A stretch of 23,403 nucleotides of DNA from a virus: positions 1 to 23,403 of IMG/VR virus record IMGVR_UViG_3300012344_000009. One strand, given 5' to 3'. Each line of letters opens with the position of its first letter. Position 1 is the stretch's first letter. Positions 1 to 23,403 of the stretch are shown here, piece after piece. The notes below the pieces were generated by a model that was given only the letters and a program-made list of their open reading frames with translations, was not told the origin of the DNA and did no database searches. The position numbers and the translations under genes are program-made.

Positions 1-78
1 ATAGCGCTGGTAGATAAAGATAACAGCAATTTTATTTCTTATCTTTTGAATGACACGATAGAATACAACGGCGGTTTA
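1..78. repeat. Terminal overlap copy 1 (identical to 23326-23403), marking circular closure of the contig
   Basis: Bases 1-78 (ATAGCGCTGGTAGATAAAGATAAC...GGCGGTTTA) recur exactly at 23326-23403. One open reading frame runs through both copies. The unique length is therefore 23,325 bp. Confidence 0.9.
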
Positions 79-4102: not shown

Positions 4103-4152
4103 GCTGATTCGTAATCAGCAGGTCGTGTGTTCGAGTCACATTGCCAGCTCCA
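4103..4152 (+). other. 3' portion of a tRNA-Thr(CGU) gene (positions ~27-76 incl. CCA); putative attP core
   Basis: Layout: GCTGA-TTCGTAA-TCAGC (anticodon arm, anticodon CGT), AGGTC (variable), GTGTG-TTCGAGT-CACAT (T arm), TGCCAGC (acceptor 3' strand), T, CCA. No complementary 5' acceptor strand (GCTGGCA) or D arm lies upstream, so this is a fragment and not a gene. It lies 118 nt upstream of the integrase. Confidence 0.75.
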
Positions 4153-4153
4153 A

Positions 4154-4185
4154 ACCCTGTATCCGTTGAGGATACAGGGTTTTTT
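4154..4185 (+). terminator. Rho-independent terminator immediately after the tRNA fragment
   Basis: An 11-bp stem ACCCTGTATCC / GGATACAGGGT with loop GTTGA, followed by TTTTT. Confidence 0.8.
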
Positions 4186-4193
4186 CTATTTTC

Positions 4194-4222
4194 TTGACAA
4201 ATTTGTCCCTCTGATTTATACT
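4194..4222 (+). promoter_or_regulatory. Sigma-A/sigma-70 type promoter for the integrase (class 'TTGACAAAT')
   Basis: TTGACA (4194-4199), a 17-nt spacer, then TATACT (4217-4222). It lies about 48 nt upstream of the int ATG, which has an AAGGAGGA RBS. Confidence 0.7.
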
Positions 4223-4269
4223 GCGAATTAAAAAGATAAGTGGGACACTTTTAAGGAGGATTTAGGGCT

Positions 4270-5277
4270 ATGCGTATCAAAATGGCGGCTGATGAAGATA
4301 GGGAATTGACAGATGTTTTAAAAGAATTTCTTACTCTTAAAGCAAGCAACAACTGCGCGCGGAAAACAATTCACAATTATGAGCAAAGTATTTTGAAACT
4401 TCAAAAGGATGAAGCCATAGAAAAAATTAGCGAACTCACCGACGAAACAATAATTGATTGGAAAAAAAGAATGTTGGATAGTTCTCTTTCCGCTTCTTCC
4501 ATTAATCATTATTTGCGAGATGTGCGCGCGTTCGTCAATTACTGTATCAGCAAGCACTACATTCCATTTTTCCAATTTGAACTTATCAAGCAACAGGAAG
4601 AAGGTATTAAGTTCCTACCAAACACCGACATAGAAAAACTTTTAGAGAAACCGCTTAAAACAGAAACCTTCCCTACTTGGCGCTCTTGGATGATTGTTAA
4701 TTGGGTTTACGCAACCGGCAACCGCGAAAGCACTATCTGTGAAGTAAGATTAAGTGATGTAGATTTTAGCGGAAGCCGTATTTATTTGCGCCACACCAAA
4801 AGCCGTAAACTACAAACTATACCCCTCTCGCGCACGCTTGCTTCCTATCTCAAAGAGTATATACGCTACTTCCGCAAAAACTGCCCGCCTACCGCCTATC
4901 TCTTCCCCTCTATTGGAGATACCAAACTAACTACTGACGGGCTACGGAGAGGCTACGCGCGCTATTGTAAAAGCAGAGGCGTTTCTAATACTTCCCTACA
5001 CGGAATACGGCACACCTTCGCGCAAGAGTGGATTAACAACAACGGCAACCTCTACCAATTACAGATTATGTTAGGACACTCTACCCCAACTATGACGCAA
5101 AAGTATTTGCGTGCGGTAGGAACTCGCTTTGATAGTTTTGAGGATTTTAACCCGCTTGATAAAGCGCGCACCGCCAGCAGGACGAAAGAAGTAGTATTAA
5201 GTGTAAGGGAGAGTATAACCAACGATAAAAACGATAATCCGCAAATCGTAGTAATTCCCCCCGAAAACGGAGAATAA
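4270..5277 (+). CDS. int: Tyrosine recombinase / phage integrase, 335 aa, no TAG
   Basis: It has an N-terminal SAM-like domain and a catalytic region with ATGNRESTICEVRLSDV, HGIRHTFAQEW and LGHSTPTMTQKYL (R...HxxR...Y pattern). The ORF is intact under the standard code. Stop at TAA 5275-5277. Confidence 0.95.
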   Translation: MRIKMAADEDRELTDVLKEFLTLKASNNCARKTIHNYEQSILKLQKDEAIEKISELTDETIIDWKKRMLDSSLSASSINHYLRDVRAFVNYCISKHYIPFFQFELIKQQEEGIKFLPNTDIEKLLEKPLKTETFPTWRSWMIVNWVYATGNRESTICEVRLSDVDFSGSRIYLRHTKSRKLQTIPLSRTLASYLKEYIRYFRKNCPPTAYLFPSIGDTKLTTDGLRRGYARYCKSRGVSNTSLHGIRHTFAQEWINNNGNLYQLQIMLGHSTPTMTQKYLRAVGTRFDSFEDFNPLDKARTASRTKEVVLSVRESITNDKNDNPQIVVIPPENGE

Positions 5278-5296
5278 ACGATTTACCCCACCAAAA

Positions 5297-5340
5297 GGAA
5301 GAGAGAAGAGTAAAAAAAAATTTGCTTTTCTCTCTTTTTT
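5297..5340 (+). terminator. Probable terminator after int
   Basis: A long imperfect hairpin: AAGAGAGA (5299-5306) pairs with TCTCTCTT (5329-5336), with further A:T/G:T pairs inside. It ends in a T-run. Confidence 0.5.
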
Positions 5341-5399
5341 GTATTTATGGTATTGCTTTTTGCGCTTGCTTGTGTTATACTATTATATTTTATATCCCA

Positions 5400-5428
5400 T
5401 TGACAAATGCGCTTTAATGTGCTATAAT
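5400..5428 (+). promoter_or_regulatory. Consensus sigma-A promoter with extended -10 (class 'TTGACAAAT')
   Basis: TTGACA (5400-5405), a 17-nt spacer, then TGcTATAAT (-10 at 5423-5428). An AT-rich upstream tract precedes it. It drives 5514-6560. Confidence 0.8.
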
Positions 5429-5513
5429 GTTAACGTAATGAGGAAGGGGAAACCTCCTCCATTCAACAAAATATGTTTAAAAATATGATTACATAAAAGG
5501 AGTAAAAAACATT

Positions 5514-5810
5514 ATGAAGAATCTTAAAGTGAAGTTTGGCGCTAACCCGTTTGGTGATACGAAGGAGGAACTGCTGAAAAATGCGGAGCGTCGTTTGGCT
5601 ACTAATTATGATGATAACGGTAGCGGTTTTAAAGTTTATCAATACATTATGGAACACGGGGACGGCTGCGTTCTGGAATACGAAGAAAATCCCTATGAGC
5701 AGAACCCCGAAGATGCTGAAATGTATTTTGGTTTAATTGCCCTTGAACATATGGGCTATATCAAGCACAAAGAAGCAAATATTATTGAGTTTCGCCCGTG
5801 CGGACGCTAA
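5514..5810 (+). CDS. Hypothetical protein, 98 aa, TAG-free
   Basis: ATG follows AAAGGAG. It is intact under the standard code. The C-terminus LIALEHMGYIKHKEANIIEFRP looks like a winged-helix wing. I recognise no family. Confidence 0.7.
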   Translation: MKNLKVKFGANPFGDTKEELLKNAERRLATNYDDNGSGFKVYQYIMEHGDGCVLEYEENPYEQNPEDAEMYFGLIALEHMGYIKHKEANIIEFRPCGR

Positions 5811-5833
5811 TTTAAAGAAAGGGATTTTAATTT

Positions 5834-6190
5834 ATGTCTAAAAAGATAATGAATAAGAAATTTGATGTATTTTATTGCGATGACAAGCGCGATAGAAGTA
5901 TTTACTGTCAAGCGTGGGAAAACCTTTATCGTAAAGGTTGGGAAGGGAACGCTGCCGTTATCTACGATGACATTTTTAAGAAAAATAAAGATAAACTTTT
6001 CCGCCCTCCGTTTAGATTTGCCTATGCTAATTATCGCTCAACTATGAGTGATGAAGAAATTACCCACGCTATCGAAGTGCTTATTAAGTGCGGTTATTTT
6101 AAGAAGTTTGACAATAAAACAGTTTATTTTTATCCCAAAGGAAACGAAGAACTTATTAATGCTTTTCTTAACGAAGAAGAAAGCGCCTAA
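5834..6190 (+). CDS. Hypothetical protein, 118 aa, TAG-free
   Basis: It is intact under the standard code. The C-terminal part reads IEVLIKCGYFKKFDNKTVYFYPKG, the same helix-G-[YF]-hairpin pattern as its neighbours. Confidence 0.7.
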   Translation: MSKKIMNKKFDVFYCDDKRDRSIYCQAWENLYRKGWEGNAAVIYDDIFKKNKDKLFRPPFRFAYANYRSTMSDEEITHAIEVLIKCGYFKKFDNKTVYFYPKGNEELINAFLNEEESA

Positions 6191-6209
6191 TTATAGAAAG
6201 GTATCAAAT

Positions 6210-6560
6210 ATGGAAAATTACGAAAAGATTTTTATTAAAGAAAACATTCACCCCGGTATGAGCGCAAAGGCACATAGAGAACTTTATGGCAGAAAGTGCT
6301 TCCTGCTTGATTTAGAGGACGAATATATATGGGATGAATACCAGAACGCAGGTAAAATCTATCAAGCAATTATTGATATGCTTCCCAATGATACGATGCT
6401 CACCCGTGAAAAAGTTAATGAAGAACTTGAAGGGCGAGAGTGGGGAACTCTTGACGAAGATGATTATGAGGTAGGGATTAATCAACTCATTGATTGGGGT
6501 TTCCTTATTGAAGAGGAAGAAACGGTTAATGATATTCCTGTAATGTGGTTTAATTGGTAA
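6210..6560 (+). CDS. Hypothetical acidic protein, 116 aa, TAG-free
   Basis: The internal ATG 6210 (MENYEKIF...) of track ORF 6048-6560 is taken as the start, because the upstream part overlaps 5834-6190 in another frame. The C-terminus reads INQLIDWGFLIEEEETVNDIPVMWFNW. Stop at TAA 6558-6560. Confidence 0.65.
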   Translation: MENYEKIFIKENIHPGMSAKAHRELYGRKCFLLDLEDEYIWDEYQNAGKIYQAIIDMLPNDTMLTREKVNEELEGREWGTLDEDDYEVGINQLIDWGFLIEEEETVNDIPVMWFNW

Positions 6561-6565
6561 TGGCG

Positions 6566-6691
6566 GACGCTGACGCGCCCGCGCCAATAGTAGGAATAAT
6601 TAAAGGGTATAATGCCCGAGACAGGTAGAAGCGCAAACGCGCTTCTTTTTTTATGCGATCCGGCGCGCCCTCTTTTCTTCCCTACTCTTGG
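6566..6691 (+). repeat. Foldback repeat element A (purine arm 6584-6607, pyrimidine arm 6668-6691) enclosing the operon terminator
   Basis: CCAATAGTAGGAATAATTAAAGGG is an imperfect reverse complement of CCCTCTTTTCTTCCCTACTCTTGG. The leader GACGCTGACGCGCCCGCGCC matches GAGCGCTAACGCGCCCCCGCC of element B at 8156. Confidence 0.6.
6627..6652 (+). terminator. Rho-independent terminator of the 5514-6560 operon
   Basis: An 8-bp stem AGAAGCGC / GCGCTTCT with loop AAAC, followed by TTTTTT. Confidence 0.85.
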
Positions 6692-6800
6692 ACAATTCCC
6701 ATTAATCGGCGTAAGCCTTTTTTCATATATCTATGGACAAAAGTGATTAAATAAATATTCACTAATTTTAGTATAATACGAGAGGAATATTCAATACCTC

Positions 6801-6829
6801 TTGACATTTATTCATTTTTGTGATATAAT
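6801..6829 (+). promoter_or_regulatory. Consensus sigma-A promoter with extended -10 (class 'TTGACATTTA...TGTGATATAATATA'), presumptive early promoter
   Basis: TTGACA (6801-6806), a 17-nt spacer, then TGaTATAAT (-10 at 6824-6829). It is near-identical to the promoter at 9242-9270. The palindrome GAATATTC (6785-6792) lies just upstream. Confidence 0.8.
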
Positions 6830-6835
6830 ATACAT

Positions 6836-6965
6836 AGGTGAGTAATCATAAGGGCAAAACTGATTAATATATCTGCCCTGATTTTTAATTGTATATGAAA
6901 GCATAATGTTTTTCTCCTTTTTCCTTTTAGAGGGGTTTGAGTAGTAGCGAACCCCTCTTCTTTTT
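6836..6965 (+). ncRNA. Candidate ~130-nt leader RNA / sRNA between the early promoter and an intrinsic terminator
   Basis: The predicted start is ~6836. Hairpin AGGGCA (6851-6856) / TGCCCT (6874-6879) is followed by GATTTTT. A terminator with 9-bp stem AGAGGGGTT (6929-6937) / AACCCCTCT (6950-6958) is followed by TCTTTTT. There is no plausible + strand ORF. The next gene starts at 7014. Confidence 0.3.
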
Positions 6966-7013
6966 AGGGAAGCAAGAGAGACATTGTATAACGAATGAAG
7001 GAGAATAAAATAA

Positions 7014-7151
7014 ATGTTAGTTAAAACGGAAACCATAACCATTAAAGTAAGTGAAGCCGAGAAGAAGGCTATTCAACAGATGGCGCAAGAGCAAGATATT
7101 AGCGTTAGTAAACTCTTGTATCGCTTTATAAAAAAGAACGGATTAATTTAA
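7014..7151 (+). CDS. Ribbon-helix-helix (CopG/Arc-like) DNA-binding protein, 45 aa, TAG-free
   Basis: ATG follows GAAGGAGAA. Translation: MLVKTETITIKVSEAEKKAIQQMAQEQDISVSKLLYRFIKKNGLI, a beta strand followed by two helices. It is below the 60-aa cutoff of the ORF track. Confidence 0.55.
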   Translation: MLVKTETITIKVSEAEKKAIQQMAQEQDISVSKLLYRFIKKNGLI

Positions 7152-7166
7152 AGGAGAAACAAAACA

Positions 7167-7349
7167 ATGGAACAAAGAACGTATCTTTATACTATTTTCA
7201 GCCGGGATTTAGCATTTAAGTTAGCATAGAAAGGTTTTAAATGCTACGGAACGGGAACAAACAGCCGATATAACGACAAAGAGGTATATTTCTTTAAAAA
7301 TACACCAGAACTTCACTATGAAATATACCAATACAAAAATAATAAATAA
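7167..7349 (+). CDS. Small DUF5659-like protein, 60 aa
   Basis: ATG follows AAGGAGAA. Translation: MEQRTYLYTIFSRDLAFKLA(TAG)KGFKCYGTGTNSRYNDKEVYFFKNTPELHYEIYQYKNNK. TAG at 7227-7229. Stop at TAA 7347-7349. Confidence 0.55.
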
Positions 7350-8872: not shown

Positions 8873-9245
8873 TTTAACCGCGAAGGAACGCGCTTTTTGT
8901 GAGGCGTATGTATAGAATTATAATGCTTGTCAGGCTTATTTAAGCGCGTATGATTGTAAATTGGAAACCGCTAATTCCGCTGGTTGGAAATTGTTATCAC
9001 GTCCCGCCATTATCAATTATATCAAGGAATTACAGCAAGCATTAACGGAGAGATACGTTGACGCAGCCGCGATAATATTAAATGAATTGATGGAAGATAT
9101 AACTTATCGTGATGAACACGGGAAGCATAGTAGCACTTGGCTGAAAAGCGCCGATTTAGCGCAGAAACAATTAGGCATTCAAAAGTTAAAGGCAGACATT
9201 CAAGCAGAGCATACAGTTATCAATGTGAATATTGAGGAAACTTGA
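8853..9245 (+). CDS. terS: Terminase small subunit (Terminase_2-like), 130 aa
   Basis: Translation: MARRTSDLTAKERAFCEAYV(TAG)NYNACQAYLSAYDCKLETANSAGWKLLSRPAIINYI... This is the typical terS N-terminal HTH pattern (LT.ke..F...Y...gNa..Ay..AGy). TAG at 8913-8915 joins it to track ORF 8961-9245. Stop at TGA 9243-9245. Confidence 0.8.
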
Positions 9246-9270
9246 CATTTAGCATAAAATGTGATATAAT
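9242..9270 (+). promoter_or_regulatory. Consensus sigma-A promoter with extended -10 overlapping the terS stop, upstream of terL
   Basis: TTGACA (9242-9247), a 17-nt spacer, then TGaTATAAT (-10 at 9265-9270). The sequence TTGACATTTAGCATAAAATGTGATATAATATATAT is a close copy of the promoter at 6801. A GAATATT element at 9227-9233 occupies the same upstream position. Confidence 0.75.
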
Positions 9271-9314
9271 ATATATGAGAGATTTGTTTAATTTATACAA
9301 AAAGAGGGGAGGCG

Positions 9315-10567
9315 ATGCCAATGCCCGCCATAGATTTAAATATCAGTAAAAATATGTTCGTCCCCCTCTATTTTCCCTACCTCTTGGATTATAGTTATAG
9401 GGATAATGTTTACTACGGCGGCAGATAAGCGCGTCGGGCAAAACGAAGTTTATAATGTAGAAACTTCTTATTAAGGGGCTGAAAGAAAAACGAACTATCT
9501 TGTTAATGCGTAAACAAACAAATCAGTTGAGAGATACGCTTTTCAAGGAAATGGCGCAAGTTATAGACGAGTTTCATTTAACCCCGTATTTTGATATTAA
9601 TAGAACGGAATTACGTTTTACTTGTAAGATTAACGGGACGGAATTTAAGTGTTAGGGATTGGACGAGCCAGAAAAGATAAAGGGCTTTGTAGATATAGCG
9701 GATGTATTTATGGACGAGATTACCGCCTTTACCGCAGAAGATGTAGAGTTAATACAAGGCACATTGAGAAGCCCAAAATATAAATTACCGTTGTAGATGT
9801 ATTTTGCGTTTAACCCTATCAGTAAAGCCAACTTTGTATATAAGTATTTTGGTTTTGATACGGGTATCGTTCCGCCCAATACCTTTATACTGAAAAGCAC
9901 TTATTTAGATAATCCCTTCTTGGGCGCTAACGTGGCGGAGCGCTACGAAACCTTAAAGTAGCGTGATTACCGGCGCTGGTAGATAGAGGCGTTAGGCGAT
10001 TTTGTAAGCCTTGATAGATTGGTATTCAATAATTACAAGGTAGAAGAATTCGATTATACGAAGATACAAGGGAAATTGTTGTGCGGATTAGATTATGGCT
10101 TTGTAAATGATATTAGCGCCTTCGTTGCTTCCGTAGCAACCGCCGATAATAAGTTATATGTGTTCCGCGAATGGGGAGACACAAATAAAACAAACCCCGA
10201 ATTATCTACCATTATCTCTACTCTTGGGTTTAGTAAGAGTGTGATAATAGCGGATTGTGCGGAGCAGAAAAGTATAGAAGAGATGCGCCGATGTGGAATA
10301 TAGAAAATTAAGCCTTGCGCAAAAGGGCAAGATAGTATAATCCACGGCATACAAAAATTACAATAGTATGAAATAGTTGTTCATCCTTCTTGTTAGGGAA
10401 TAATTACGGAACTACAAAATTATTCGTGGTAGAAAGATAAAAGCGGTGAGTATATCAACAAGCCTATTGATGCGTTCAATCACTACATAGACGCGCTGCG
10501 TTATAGCCTACAATGTATTGATGCTAACCGTATAAGAACGATGGACAAAAGTATTTTTGGATTATGA
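9315..10567 (+). CDS. terL: Terminase large subunit (PBSX/XtmB-like), ~416 aa, 9 in-frame TAGs and a frame break inside Walker A
   Basis: The N-terminal 37 codons (frame 0) MPMPAIDLNISKNMFVPLYFPYLLDYSYRDNVYYGGR stop at TAA 9426. The rest is in frame 2: (I)SASGKTKFIM.KLLIKGLKEKRTILLMRK...GLDEPEKIKG...VFMDEITAF...NHYIDALRYSL. TAGs at 9458, 9653, 9794, 9959, 9980, 10301, 10364, 10394 and 10430. Stop at TGA 10565-10567. Confidence 0.85.
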
Positions 10568-12976: not shown

Positions 12977-14047
12977 ATGAATATCATTTCTTACGCTATT
13001 GGTAGAAATAGCGGGGGTAGTAGTGGCGGAGATACGCCAACGGCAGAAGAATTGACATTGACGGGTGATTGCGCATATGCGTTTTATCACGGAACTTTTG
13101 ATTGGTTGATTAATAAATATGGAAATTCAATTACTACAAACAATATTACGCAAGGCAATAATATGTTTAATTTTACAACTGTATTATCTATTCCTTTTAC
13201 TTTAAATTGCGCTGATAACCCATATGATAATAGCGCTTTTTTAAGAATGTTTTTAAACGCTCAAAAATTACAAGTTGCGCCGAACATAACCGGCTATTTG
13301 CGCGGGGTAGAAAGTATGTTTAGTGGTTGCCTTAATCTTCACGCTATCCCTGAATATAACATTAATTTTGATAGATAGCACGCTGACACAAGCGGGAGTG
13401 TAAACAATATATTTAAGGATTGCTATAAACTACGTTCAATTCCCACTAATTTTTTAAAGCAATTATATAACGCGAACAATTATGGGTATCAAACTTCTTA
13501 TTATAGTTTCTTTAATGGTTGTTATTATTTAGATGAAATTGTTGGAATACCGGTTTCATCCGCTACCCTTACTTTAAACTGTTTCAGCCATACGTTTTTT
13601 AATTGTAAACGTGTAAAAAATATTATTTTTGATACAGATAACGGAAACGTAAAAACTGCTAATTGGAAAGCGCAAACTATTGATTTAACAGAAAATGGCG
13701 GAGTTGGGCATAGCGCCGGTTATGGGCTTGACACAATAGGCGATGATGATGGGTATAGATTAACCAACGCTACACAAATAACATCATTAAATTACGATAC
13801 TTTAAAAAATAACCCTGATAGTTGGGCAACCGTAAAAGAATATAGCCGTTATAATCACGATAGCGCCGTAGAAACCATTAATAGCCTTCCCGATACGAGC
13901 GCCTATATAGAGGCGAACGGCGGAACTAATACAATTAAGTTCCAAGGCGAGAGCGGAAAGTTAACCGATGGAGGCGCTATTAATACTCTCACCGAAGAAG
14001 AGATAGCCGTAGCAACCGCGAAGGGCTGGACAGTTTCGTTTGTTTAA
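12977..14047 (+). CDS. BspA-type leucine-rich-repeat-like accessory/structural protein, 356 aa
   Basis: ORF 12977-13378 continues through TAG 13376 to TAA 14045-14047. Recurrent MF.gC..L..IP-type repeats are present (MFSGCLNLHAIPE, IFKDCYKLRSIPT, FFNGCYYLDEIVGIP, FFNCKRVKNIIF). The C-terminus reads NTIKFQGESGKLTDGGAINTLTEEEIAVATAKGWTVSFV. Confidence 0.55.
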
Positions 14048-14284: not shown

Positions 14285-14341
14285 ATCTAATAGCGCTATT
14301 TTTTAATATAAAATGAAATCAAGGTAATGGAGGTTATCAAT

Positions 14342-14617
14342 ATGGAAGAAATCTGGAAAGATTGCCCGCACTACCCCAACTATCTAATTTCCAATAGAGG
14401 TAGAGTATTTGATTTAAGCGCTCACCGCATTGTGAAGATATGGCAGAACAATGAAGGCTATCAGTTGGTTTAGTTGCGGAATTACACCAATAGGAACGAG
14501 AAGATACATAGATTAGTTGCGCTTGCGTTCATTCCAAACCCACAAGGCTATTGTAAAGTTGAACATAAGAACGGGATTAAGAACGATAACCGCGTAAGTA
14601 ATTTAGAGTGGCGCTAA
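14342..14617 (+). CDS. Free-standing HNH homing endonuclease (NUMOD4 + HNH_3-like), 91 aa
   Basis: ATG follows GGAGGT. Translation: [25 protein letters not shown]...GYQLV(TAG)[50 protein letters not shown] at 14471-14473. Stop at TAA 14615-14617. Confidence 0.85.
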
Positions 14618-22443: not shown

Positions 22444-23403
22444 ATGAGTATTTCCCCGATCCGGACACTCACGGCTACGGCAGAGTTTTATTTAAATAAT
22501 TCAAAAGTAGCCGAATACGCAAACACAGACAAAATTATTTCATTCGATATTTAGCGCGTCGGTGAAGATAGCAAGTTTTTCGGTTTTGGTATCTGCCAGC
22601 GCCTTAACTTAAAGCTGATAGATAAAGAGCGGGCGCTTGCCTACACAACCGCCCACTCTATCAAAATAACAATTACCGACAATTCCGCGAACACCTTTAC
22701 TTTTCCCTACTTTTGGATTAGTGAAATCCATAGAGACGAAAAAACAAACCAATTAAGCATTACCGCCTATGATTTAATTTACCCCGCCAGCGCGCACACC
22801 TACGACGAACTCACAATAGAAAAGCCTTATACTATTACGGAACTTCTTTCCGCTATTGGAACGTTGCTTAAAGTTGAAGTGAACGAAGTAGGAGAAGCGT
22901 TTAATATTTCTTATGCGGAAGGCGCGAACTATGAGGGAACAGAAACGATTAGAGAAGTATTAGATGACATAGCGGAAGCAACAACCACAATTTATTTTTT
23001 GGACAAAGATAATAAACTCACGTTCAAAGAGTTAGACAGAGACGGAGAGCCTATTTTAACGATAGATAAGAGTTTATATTTTGAATTAACTACTTCCTCT
23101 AATAAGCGCCTTCAAACGATTTGTAGCGTCACAGAGTTGGGCGATAATGCCAGCGCCTCTACTACTTCTATCGGCTCTACGCAATATGTAAGAGATAACC
23201 CCTTTTTAGAGTTGCGCGATGATATAACCACTATTTTAGATAGCGCCATTGAACGAGTAGGCAATTTAACGATTAGCGTATTTAATTGTAAATGGCGCGG
23301 AATGCCAATAGAGGTAGGAAGTAAGATAGCGCTGGTAGATAAAGATAACAGCAATTTTATTTCTTATCTTTTGAATGACACGATAGAATACAACGGCGGT
23401 TTA
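22444..23403 (+). CDS. Tail-associated protein (Tal-like), 5' part; continues at base 1 across the circular junction
   Basis: ATG 22444 follows GGGGGT. TAG at 22552-22554. Frame 1 then stays open to the window end and continues at 1-675 (518 aa in total). It is absent from the ORF track because it has no stop inside the window. Confidence 0.7.
23326..23403. repeat. Terminal overlap copy 2 (identical to 1-78)
   Basis: An exact 78-nt match to the window start. Confidence 0.9.

Follow-up and report, generated by a model that had tools for sequence, protein, structure and literature searches.

How do phages that use TAG as a sense codon read their ambers in hosts with a standard genetic code if they carry no suppressor tRNA? 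A TAG suppressor tRNA is detectable in only ~40% of TAG-recoded phage genomes, and the cellular mechanism in the other ~60% has been called an open question (Borges et al., 10.1101/2021.08.26.457843; Nat Microbiol 2022); no later paper on the mechanism of tRNA-less TAG decoding was found in the literature. The question is raised by a locus at positions 5400-6652 of the virus record IMGVR_UViG_3300012344_000009 from IMG/VR, a stretch of 23,403 nucleotides (nt) that was analyzed at its full length (“the window”). A preliminary description, made from the sequence alone, had noted that the window encodes neither a suppressor tRNA nor a release factor, and had singled out a strongly promoted, TAG-free three-gene operon at this locus as the only unexplained candidate for the missing function. 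Most of these observations stand up, and the interpretation is supported in part. That a recoded phage lacks a suppressor tRNA is correct, but has already been published (10.1101/2021.08.26.457843). The new finding is the mosaic makeup of the operon, which forms a cassette with conserved flanks on either side. On balance, the locus is probably a self-contained accessory cassette of orphan proteins in standard code, of the moron, counter-defence or exclusion type.

The cassette begins with a promoter at 5400-5428 (TTGACA, a 17-nt spacer and TATAAT, with an extended -10 TG), which matches the consensus at 12/12 positions. It is followed on the + strand by gene A (5514-5810; 98 amino acids (aa), isoelectric point (pI) 5.0, an orphan), gene B (5834-6190; 118 aa, pI 8.3, likewise an orphan) and gene C (6210-6560, with the start corrected to 6210; 116 aa, pI 4.2, net charge -18). 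Directly behind C, a GC-rich 21-mer, GGCGGACGCTGACGCGCCCGC, at 6561-6581 (+ strand) forms the distal boundary of the cassette and is invariant in five relatives; the intrinsic cassette terminator follows at 6627-6646 (+ strand), where the relatives carry different hairpins in the same place. As first described, promoter, A, B, C and terminator thus make up a discrete transcription unit with a perfect extended -10 promoter and a clean terminator, which is translatable before any suppression, as its three genes carry 0 TAG codons. The combination of TAG-free genes with a host-type promoter makes expression by the host machinery possible. However, the absence of TAG from the operon (332 codons, 6 of them for Gln) is by itself insignificant (P = 0.078 per codon, 0.23 per Gln codon), and only the TAG-free block of integrase, operon and the downstream gene for a ribbon-helix-helix (RHH) protein is significant (P ~0.004-0.006). 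Nor does the perfect promoter single out the cassette: the genome contains four near-consensus promoters (4194, 5400, 6801, and 9242) vs. 0.45 per strand in shuffled sequence, of which those at 6801 and 9242 are as perfect as the one at 5400, with 11/12 at 4194. The view that the operon is the only unexplained candidate has to be given up, because the TAG-free RHH gene and the conserved leader RNAs described below are equally unexplained and better conserved.

The mosaic nature of the cassette emerges from comparison with its relatives. The promoter block (5350-5460) is kept in all of them, as is everything from 6561 onward, and the nucleotide alignment breaks exactly at 5460 and 6561. Between these points the content changes: in relatives L005 and L006 the promoter leads directly to B and C, without A; L007 carries X140, an unrelated protein of 140 aa, followed by C' (70% identical to C); L009 carries B' (33% identical to B), followed by C'; and L069 carries B' followed by D119, an unrelated acidic protein of 119 aa, without C. 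Gene A is hence cleanly absent from L005, L006, L007, L009, and L069, B is missing in L007, where the 140-aa gene takes its place, and is represented by diverged B' alleles (~33%) in L009 and L069, while C is replaced by D119 in L069. For each of the three genes, there is thus at least one close, equally TAG-recoded and tRNA-less relative that lacks it. All cassette alleles observed are TAG-free. In L069, the GGCGGACGCTGACGCGCCCGC junction encodes the last codons of D119. Conserved flanks with changing content characterize the slot as a hotspot for the swapping of small accessory genes. In L009, positions 3-407 encode the C-terminus of an EcoRI-type adenine methyltransferase (PF13651, 2.2e-29) immediately upstream of the cassette promoter, where the window has the 3' end of the integrase gene. 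Orphan methylases are typical anti-restriction accessory genes, and this one marks the region as an accessory or anti-restriction hotspot. A fusion at positions 1-560 of another contig, L008, in which a tRNA-Cys and the N-terminus of a metallophosphatase are joined in frame to the last 50 codons of C, was rejected as, in all likelihood, a chimera of the assembly: the AT content of its left part is far higher, and the fusion point falls in a GATGA-rich stretch of low complexity.

What the proteins do is less readily deduced from their sequences. As previously noted, A, B, and C belong to no recognized family: searches of Pfam, PHROG, NCBIfam, and PADLOC gave no match, homology to known repressor or antirepressor families with a helix-turn-helix (HTH) or winged HTH was not found in Pfam, NCBIfam, or PHROG, and comparison with PDB sequences, including profile searches, returned nothing. 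Among 5.8 billion proteins, A, B, and C fall into 2, 3, and 8 clusters, respectively, all of them metagenomic, and a profile of C against 1.84 billion representatives retrieved only its own family. Scanning IMG/VR with protein C gave nothing, and the integrase gave one relative; scans of IMG/VR and JGI metagenomes with the 21-nt junction returned the relative from the integrase scan and 10 chance matches in genomes of 62-72% GC.

The three proteins had been described as ending in a similar helix-G-[YF]-hairpin pattern, which was also seen in the Rep protein and in the product of the gene at 7167. A strict version of this motif, [LIVM]..L...G[YFH][LIVF], which was drawn up after viewing the data, occurs exactly three times in the proteome of 7,100 residues, once each in A, B, and C, while Rep and the 7167 product fail it. 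In 2,000 shuffles the motif was never found in more than one cassette protein; the common tail motif is genuine and non-random. X140 and B' share the motif, and D119 has a Lys in place of the motif Gly. Of the further proposal of a small paralogous winged-helix-like family, the winged-helix-like tail agrees with the models, albeit without a significant fold match. Paralogy is statistically unsupported: A and B match each other in BLASTP with E = 0.011, C matches neither, and hhalign places the motif of the cassette proteins in register with a probability of only 1-3%. The AlphaFold model of C has a mean predicted local distance difference test (pLDDT) of 64, with residues 41-116 at pLDDT 70-84 and arranged as H1-strand-H2-H3-wing. 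Foldseek searches with this model gave best E-values of 0.18 (PDB) and 0.11 (BFVD) and TM-scores of up to 0.58 per target, none of them significant; the lists consist mostly of winged-helix proteins (linker histone, the winged helix of ORC/Cdc6, STIV F93, PadR, RTP, plasmid Rep, Fur/PerR, and TubR). The model of B, built from 4 sequences, is poor (pLDDT 52) with weak matches of winged-helix type. Judged from these models of C and B, the common motif of the tails would form a putative winged-helix recognition helix and wing.

Small viral winged-helix proteins, such as STIV F93, SSV1 F-93, PadR-like proteins, and the N-terminal winged helix of plasmid Rep, resemble the C model in the H1-strand-H2-H3-beta-hairpin wing of ~75 residues and head its Foldseek lists, yet without a significant match (best E = 0.11-0.18) and without a match at the level of sequence families. 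Compared with winged helices that bind DNA, C differs in that its putative recognition helix and wing are strongly acidic. Most alleles share this character: the net charge is -18 for C, -11 for D119, -7 for X140, -6 for A, and +2 for B, and in the last 45 residues it amounts to -13 (C), -6 (A), -4 (B), -6 (X140), and -9 (D119). Acidic tails are a poor fit to canonical DNA binding.

How such a cassette might function can be outlined by analogy. Accessory hotspots and morons beside integration or immunity regions are known to hold genes for exclusion or defence that are expressed from the prophage, or anti-defence loci such as acr operons. The cassette resembles them in its own promoter and terminator, in small orphan genes that turn over rapidly between conserved flanks beside the integrase, and in the orphan methylase that L009 carries in the same region. 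It differs in lacking a match to a known exclusion, defence or anti-defence family and an Aca-type regulator within the operon, in the winged-helix-like tail of all its alleles, and in being among the few genes of the genome that a standard-code ribosome can translate fully. We propose that the cassette occupies a hotspot of recombination, which lies between integrase and early lytic control region and is bounded by the conserved consensus sigma-70 promoter on one side and by the conserved GC-rich junction, followed by the terminator, on the other. Within this slot, small orphan genes would be gained, lost, and swapped among closely related phages. Host RNA polymerase and ordinary ribosomes could express the cassette right after DNA entry or from the prophage, with no prior code switch. 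Its products, which combine a variable N-terminal part with a common winged-helix-like C-terminal module and are mostly acidic, would most likely bind macromolecules of the host or of competitors in counter-defence, host takeover or superinfection exclusion; binding to operators of the phage itself is unlikely, and they would not be the factor that makes TAG readable. While the architecture of the cassette can be read directly from the alignments, we infer from sequence how the proteins act and when they are expressed.

Several points weigh against this proposal. A, B, and C match none of the known anti-defence, exclusion or regulatory families in Pfam, PHROG, PADLOC, and NCBIfam; the structural models are moderate for C (pLDDT 64) and poor for B (pLDDT 52), and all fold matches have E > 0.1. 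Only ~5 distinct cassette variants have been sampled, and the common C-terminal module could in principle give different alleles one shared function. Finally, expression in the prophage or early in infection is a prediction from promoter and codon content.

Whether the cassette has a part in recoding depends on what the rest of the genome offers. An exact 78-nt repeat at both ends of the window (1-78 = 23326-23403) closes it to a circle, and the window is a complete circular phage genome of 23,325 bp; the same phage was also found as contigs of 23,444, 23,123, and 22,689 nt in other assemblies. Since the genome is complete, the absence of decoding genes is real for the whole phage and not an artefact of a fragment. 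All genes lie on the + strand. Reading TAG as sense lifts the share of this strand that is covered by open reading frames (ORFs) of 100 aa or more from 0.64 to 0.92 and extends the longest ORF from 341 to 1102 aa; this ORF encodes the tape-measure protein, with 8 TAGs inside. Reassignment of TGA gives no comparable gain in ORF coverage or length. The genome contains 49-51 in-frame TAGs, 49 of them in the curated gene set, whose genes end in TAA (18) or TGA (16) and never in TAG (0). At variable TAG positions, two diverged relatives have Gln as the partner in 33/56 cases, with Glu (4) as the runner-up. TAG is hence read as Gln in this phage, and the original count of about 51 ambers decoded as Gln is borne out by the number of in-frame TAGs, the gain in ORF coverage, and the Gln partners. 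In the lytic genes, TAG accounts for ~22% of Gln codons. The base before an in-frame TAG is C in 0/49 cases, vs. 15-20% for other codons, which fits a general avoidance of CTAG. A model of context-dependent leaky readthrough was considered and ruled out, as the +4 context of TAG shows no bias compared with CAA/CAG codons (P = 0.42); whatever decodes TAG therefore acts globally and efficiently.

Searches for a phage-encoded decoder came back empty over the whole genome. ARAGORN, the check proposed in the preliminary description, was run on the contig and found 0 tRNAs; Rfam at E <= 1 found no tRNA; and no ORF matched a release factor (RF1, RF2), an aminoacyl-tRNA synthetase or a tRNA-modifying enzyme in Pfam, PHROG, and other family searches. 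With permissive settings, ARAGORN made tens to hundreds of noise calls; few of these have a CUA anticodon, and each such call falls within a coding sequence. An Rfam match to BTnc005 at 4150-4258 was dismissed as a chance match over a terminator (28 bits vs. a gathering score of 175). The absence of a suppressor tRNA and of a release-factor gene from the complete genome is thereby confirmed, and with it the earlier conclusion that decoding of TAG must come from outside or through an unrecognized factor. The tRNA-Thr loci of the host contain no prophage copy, and no CUA tRNA lies within 8 kb of them. The simplest source of TAG decoding would be a tRNA(CUA) encoded by the host or by a co-resident phage. 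The Lak, crAss-like, Jade, and Agate phages, which carry code-switch sets of suppressor tRNA, RF2/RF1, and aminoacyl-tRNA synthetases, are similar in having in-frame TAGs in essential genes and a standard-code host, but none of the components of these sets is present in the genome described here.

The distribution of TAG codons also restricts where a trigger encoded by the phage itself might be found. Only the integrase, A, B, C, the RHH protein, and four short late structural genes are fully translatable without suppression, whereas the Rep and DUF5659 genes have in-frame TAGs at codons 13 and 20. Consequently, any phage-encoded trigger would have to be the integrase, A, B, C, the RHH protein or an RNA.

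Two of these candidates, the RHH protein and an RNA, are found in the early lytic control region directly behind the cassette. Its promoter at 6801-6829 (+ strand) has 12/12 consensus positions with TG. An invariant operator-like box, TATGGACAAAAGTGATTAA, lies upstream at 6732-6750, and a second one, TAAGGGCAAAACTGATTAA, just 3' of the -10 at 6849-6867 (both + strand); 2 such matches were found vs. 0.09 expected. The boxes (GGRCAAAASTGATTAA), with a looser third copy at 6689-6707, bracket the promoter and show no change across five relatives. Whatever genes the cassette contains, boxes, promoter, and leader remain the same. The gene for the RHH protein (Arc/CopG/NikA-like) follows at 7014-7151 (+ strand); its basic product of 45 aa is kept in all relatives, is encoded without TAG, and is a more likely binder of the operator-like boxes than A, B or C. 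The intervening leader (6836-7013) is more conserved than the adjoining genes, with TAG TAG at 6942-6947, and contains a terminator-like hairpin at 6929-6958 (+ strand) with an invariant GAGUAGUAGC loop. A short leader ORF (ATG at 6906, MFFSFFLLEGFE-TAG-TAG-...-TGA at 6996-6998) has the tandem ambers in frame and ends at the Shine-Dalgarno sequence of the RHH gene; its frame is kept in 3/5 (window, L069, and L009) and broken by 1-nt indels in L007 and L008. Such an ORF with tandem ambers could be a suppression-sensing device. A perfect promoter with extended -10 at 9242-9270 lies upstream of the large-terminase and structural genes and is followed, within the region 9242-9380, by a long leader hairpin that shares its AGAGGGG...CCCCTCT stem with the early leader and is accompanied by a T-run. 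The common stem suggests that both leaders might share termination or antitermination control, and the arrangement suggests that the late genes would be blocked mainly at translation, by their own TAG codons.

The position of the cassette between integrase and early lytic promoter is the usual place of immunity genes, and a lysogen with the standard code can translate TAG-free genes. Among A, B, and C, one or more might therefore be a prophage repressor, an antirepressor or a lysis-lysogeny decision protein that acts via its winged-helix tail, all the more as no other repressor-like gene, the RHH gene apart, was recognized in the genome. The predicted fold would suit this role, and B is mildly basic with a lysine-rich wing and a putative recognition helix that is the best conserved part between B and B'. 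However, a regulator should vary together with its operators, and no co-variation is seen: loss or replacement of A, B, and C leaves the operator-like boxes, the promoter, and the leader unchanged. Moreover, the tails of C, D119, A, and X140 are acidic and ill suited to DNA binding, no HTH or repressor family was matched, the cassette is co-directional with the lytic operon and insulated from it by a terminator, and the conserved TAG-free RHH protein is the better candidate for operator binding. Ordinary repressor or antirepressor roles had initially been rated as equally possible; box invariance and the acidic tails (C at -18) weaken this assessment, and a role in immunity now appears conceivable but rather doubtful. 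The recurrence of a two-slot layout in relatives, in which slot 1 (B, B' or X140) is followed by a strongly acidic protein in slot 2 (C or D119), like many antitoxins and inhibitors, might instead point to a toxin-antitoxin-like or abortive-infection module that stabilizes the prophage or excludes other phages. Small genes, tight spacing, and the strong promoter would fit as well; the HicA-like match of B' is negligible (E = 0.013), matches to toxin-antitoxin or defence families are not significant, no toxin-like fold or catalytic motif was recognized, and the window has three genes instead of two. We regard such a module as very unlikely indeed.

The idea that gave the locus its interest, i.e., that products of the cassette enable the reading of TAG as Gln in the absence of a phage tRNA, e.g., through antagonism to RF1 or the redirection of host tRNA-Gln or its charging, possibly by way of the common C-terminal module, draws on elimination, given a complete genome without a tRNA. 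The early TAGs in Rep and DUF5659 mean that suppression is needed before phage proteins beyond the integrase, A, B, C, and the RHH protein can be made, all cassette alleles are TAG-free with a non-random tail motif, and the lack of +4 bias (P = 0.42) speaks for a global and efficient mechanism, which is acknowledged as open in recoded phages without a tRNA (10.1101/2021.08.26.457843). Yet a factor for reading TAG should be kept wherever recoding is kept, and none of A, B, and C is conserved among close, equally recoded relatives, which makes this role unlikely. D119 lacks the motif glycine, similarity to translation factors was not detected, the operon's lack of TAG is insignificant on its own, and a host or co-resident tRNA(CUA) would be a possible source. 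In addition, a constitutive consensus promoter would abolish the switch and make the lytic genes translatable in lysogens. The preliminary description had called any role in code switching pure inference; this caution was justified, and the role itself is now disfavored by the mosaic cassette, the insignificant absence of TAG, and a promoter that is one of four, so that we consider it very improbable. More generally, the phage itself might trigger efficient UAG-to-Gln decoding via an unrecognized protein or RNA factor without a phage tRNA, for which the winged-helix-like module of the cassette (e.g., as an RF1 antagonist) and the leader RNA at 6836-6966 with its invariant UAG-UAG hairpin loop would fit as candidates; this, too, seems quite improbable. 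The reading as an accessory cassette is thus the one we prefer.

The surroundings of the cassette place the phage in a known group. The only tRNA-like piece noted in the preliminary description, a tRNA-Thr fragment at 4103-4152 (+ strand), does derive from tRNA-Thr, but constitutes the core of the phage attachment site (attP): it corresponds to the 3' half of tRNA-Thr(CGT), from the anticodon stem to CCA, and is found exactly in 58 GTDB genomes, with 52 matches lying within full-length tRNA-Thr(CGT) genes. Nearly all of these genomes are gut or rumen Oscillospiraceae or other Oscillospirales. The similarity reaches the downstream terminator in some host genomes, and 4187 in comparison with L060. 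The att region of L069 is arranged differently, with a full-length tRNA-Thr(CGT) gene at 6839-6914 (minus strand) between the endolysin and integrase genes and on the strand opposite the integrase, while the window has the 3' half only, on the + strand. Next to attP, an integrase promoter (4194-4222, + strand; TTGACA-17-TATACT, 11/12) precedes the gene for a tyrosine integrase of 335 aa (4270-5277, + strand; Pfam Phage_integrase, 5.8e-29; PHROG 1, 2.3e-44), which has 0 TAG in 335 codons and 11 CAA/CAG codons and is followed by a terminator-like hairpin at 5295-5340 (+ strand).

These features match the Topaz clade of TAG-recoded temperate phages with genomes of 22 ± 3 kb and Oscillospiraceae hosts (Borges et al., 10.1101/2021.08.26.457843; Nat Microbiol 2022). 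The preliminary description had not recognized this clade, whose lack of a tRNA and whose TAG-free integrase and lysogeny genes have been published. A curated Topaz prophage of 23,706 bp in an Oscillospiraceae genome is bounded by an integrase and a host tRNA-Thr, circular forms are ~24 kb, and the integrases avoid TAG (10.1101/2021.08.26.457843). The phage described here likewise has TAG as Gln in structural, lysis, and replication genes, a circular genome of ~23 kb, a predicted Oscillospiraceae host, tRNA-Thr integration beside the integrase, and a TAG-free integrase, and one identical contig comes from the SRR17470xx run series, as in the data of Borges et al. We assign it to the clade by this feature set. 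As a difference, neither the cassette that lies between integrase and lytic promoter nor its mosaic makeup is described in the preprint text (10.1101/2021.08.26.457843), and the same applies to the conserved elements of the leaders. A whole-genome megablast search of 50,697 GenBank phage records gave no match.

The genes follow one another as tail fibre, holin, CHAP/LysM endolysin, attP, integrase, three-gene operon, RHH, DUF5659, a DnaD/Rep-like initiator, the small and the large terminase, portal, Mu-F-like head protein, major head protein, connectors, major tail protein, and tape measure. The gene at 22444 runs across the circle junction into 1-675 and encodes a protein of 518 aa. Within the head-morphogenesis module, an orphan protein of 356 aa (12977-14047, one TAG) contains repeated F..C..L..IP-type segments reminiscent of leucine-rich repeats and has no PHROG match. 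Genes resembling HNH/NUMOD4 homing endonucleases are found at 14327-14617 of the window, between head genes, and at 3875-4462 of L007 and 11675-12268 of L069, in both cases between the small and large terminase genes; with their differing sites in relatives, they look like mobile insertions.

By itself, the cassette looks like an ordinary accessory hotspot of orphan proteins. The genome around it offers a compact setting for the study of recoding in the absence of a suppressor tRNA: complete at 23.3 kb and without a tRNA, it has five early ORFs that are translatable before suppression (integrase, A, B, C, and RHH) besides ~1 kb of non-coding DNA that is conserved, and it is about the smallest system for the question of how the ~60% of TAG-recoded phages without a detectable suppressor tRNA read their ambers in standard-code hosts. 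With the cassette mosaic and dispensable, attention turns to the host or a co-resident phage and, within the genome itself, to the RHH protein and the leader RNAs.

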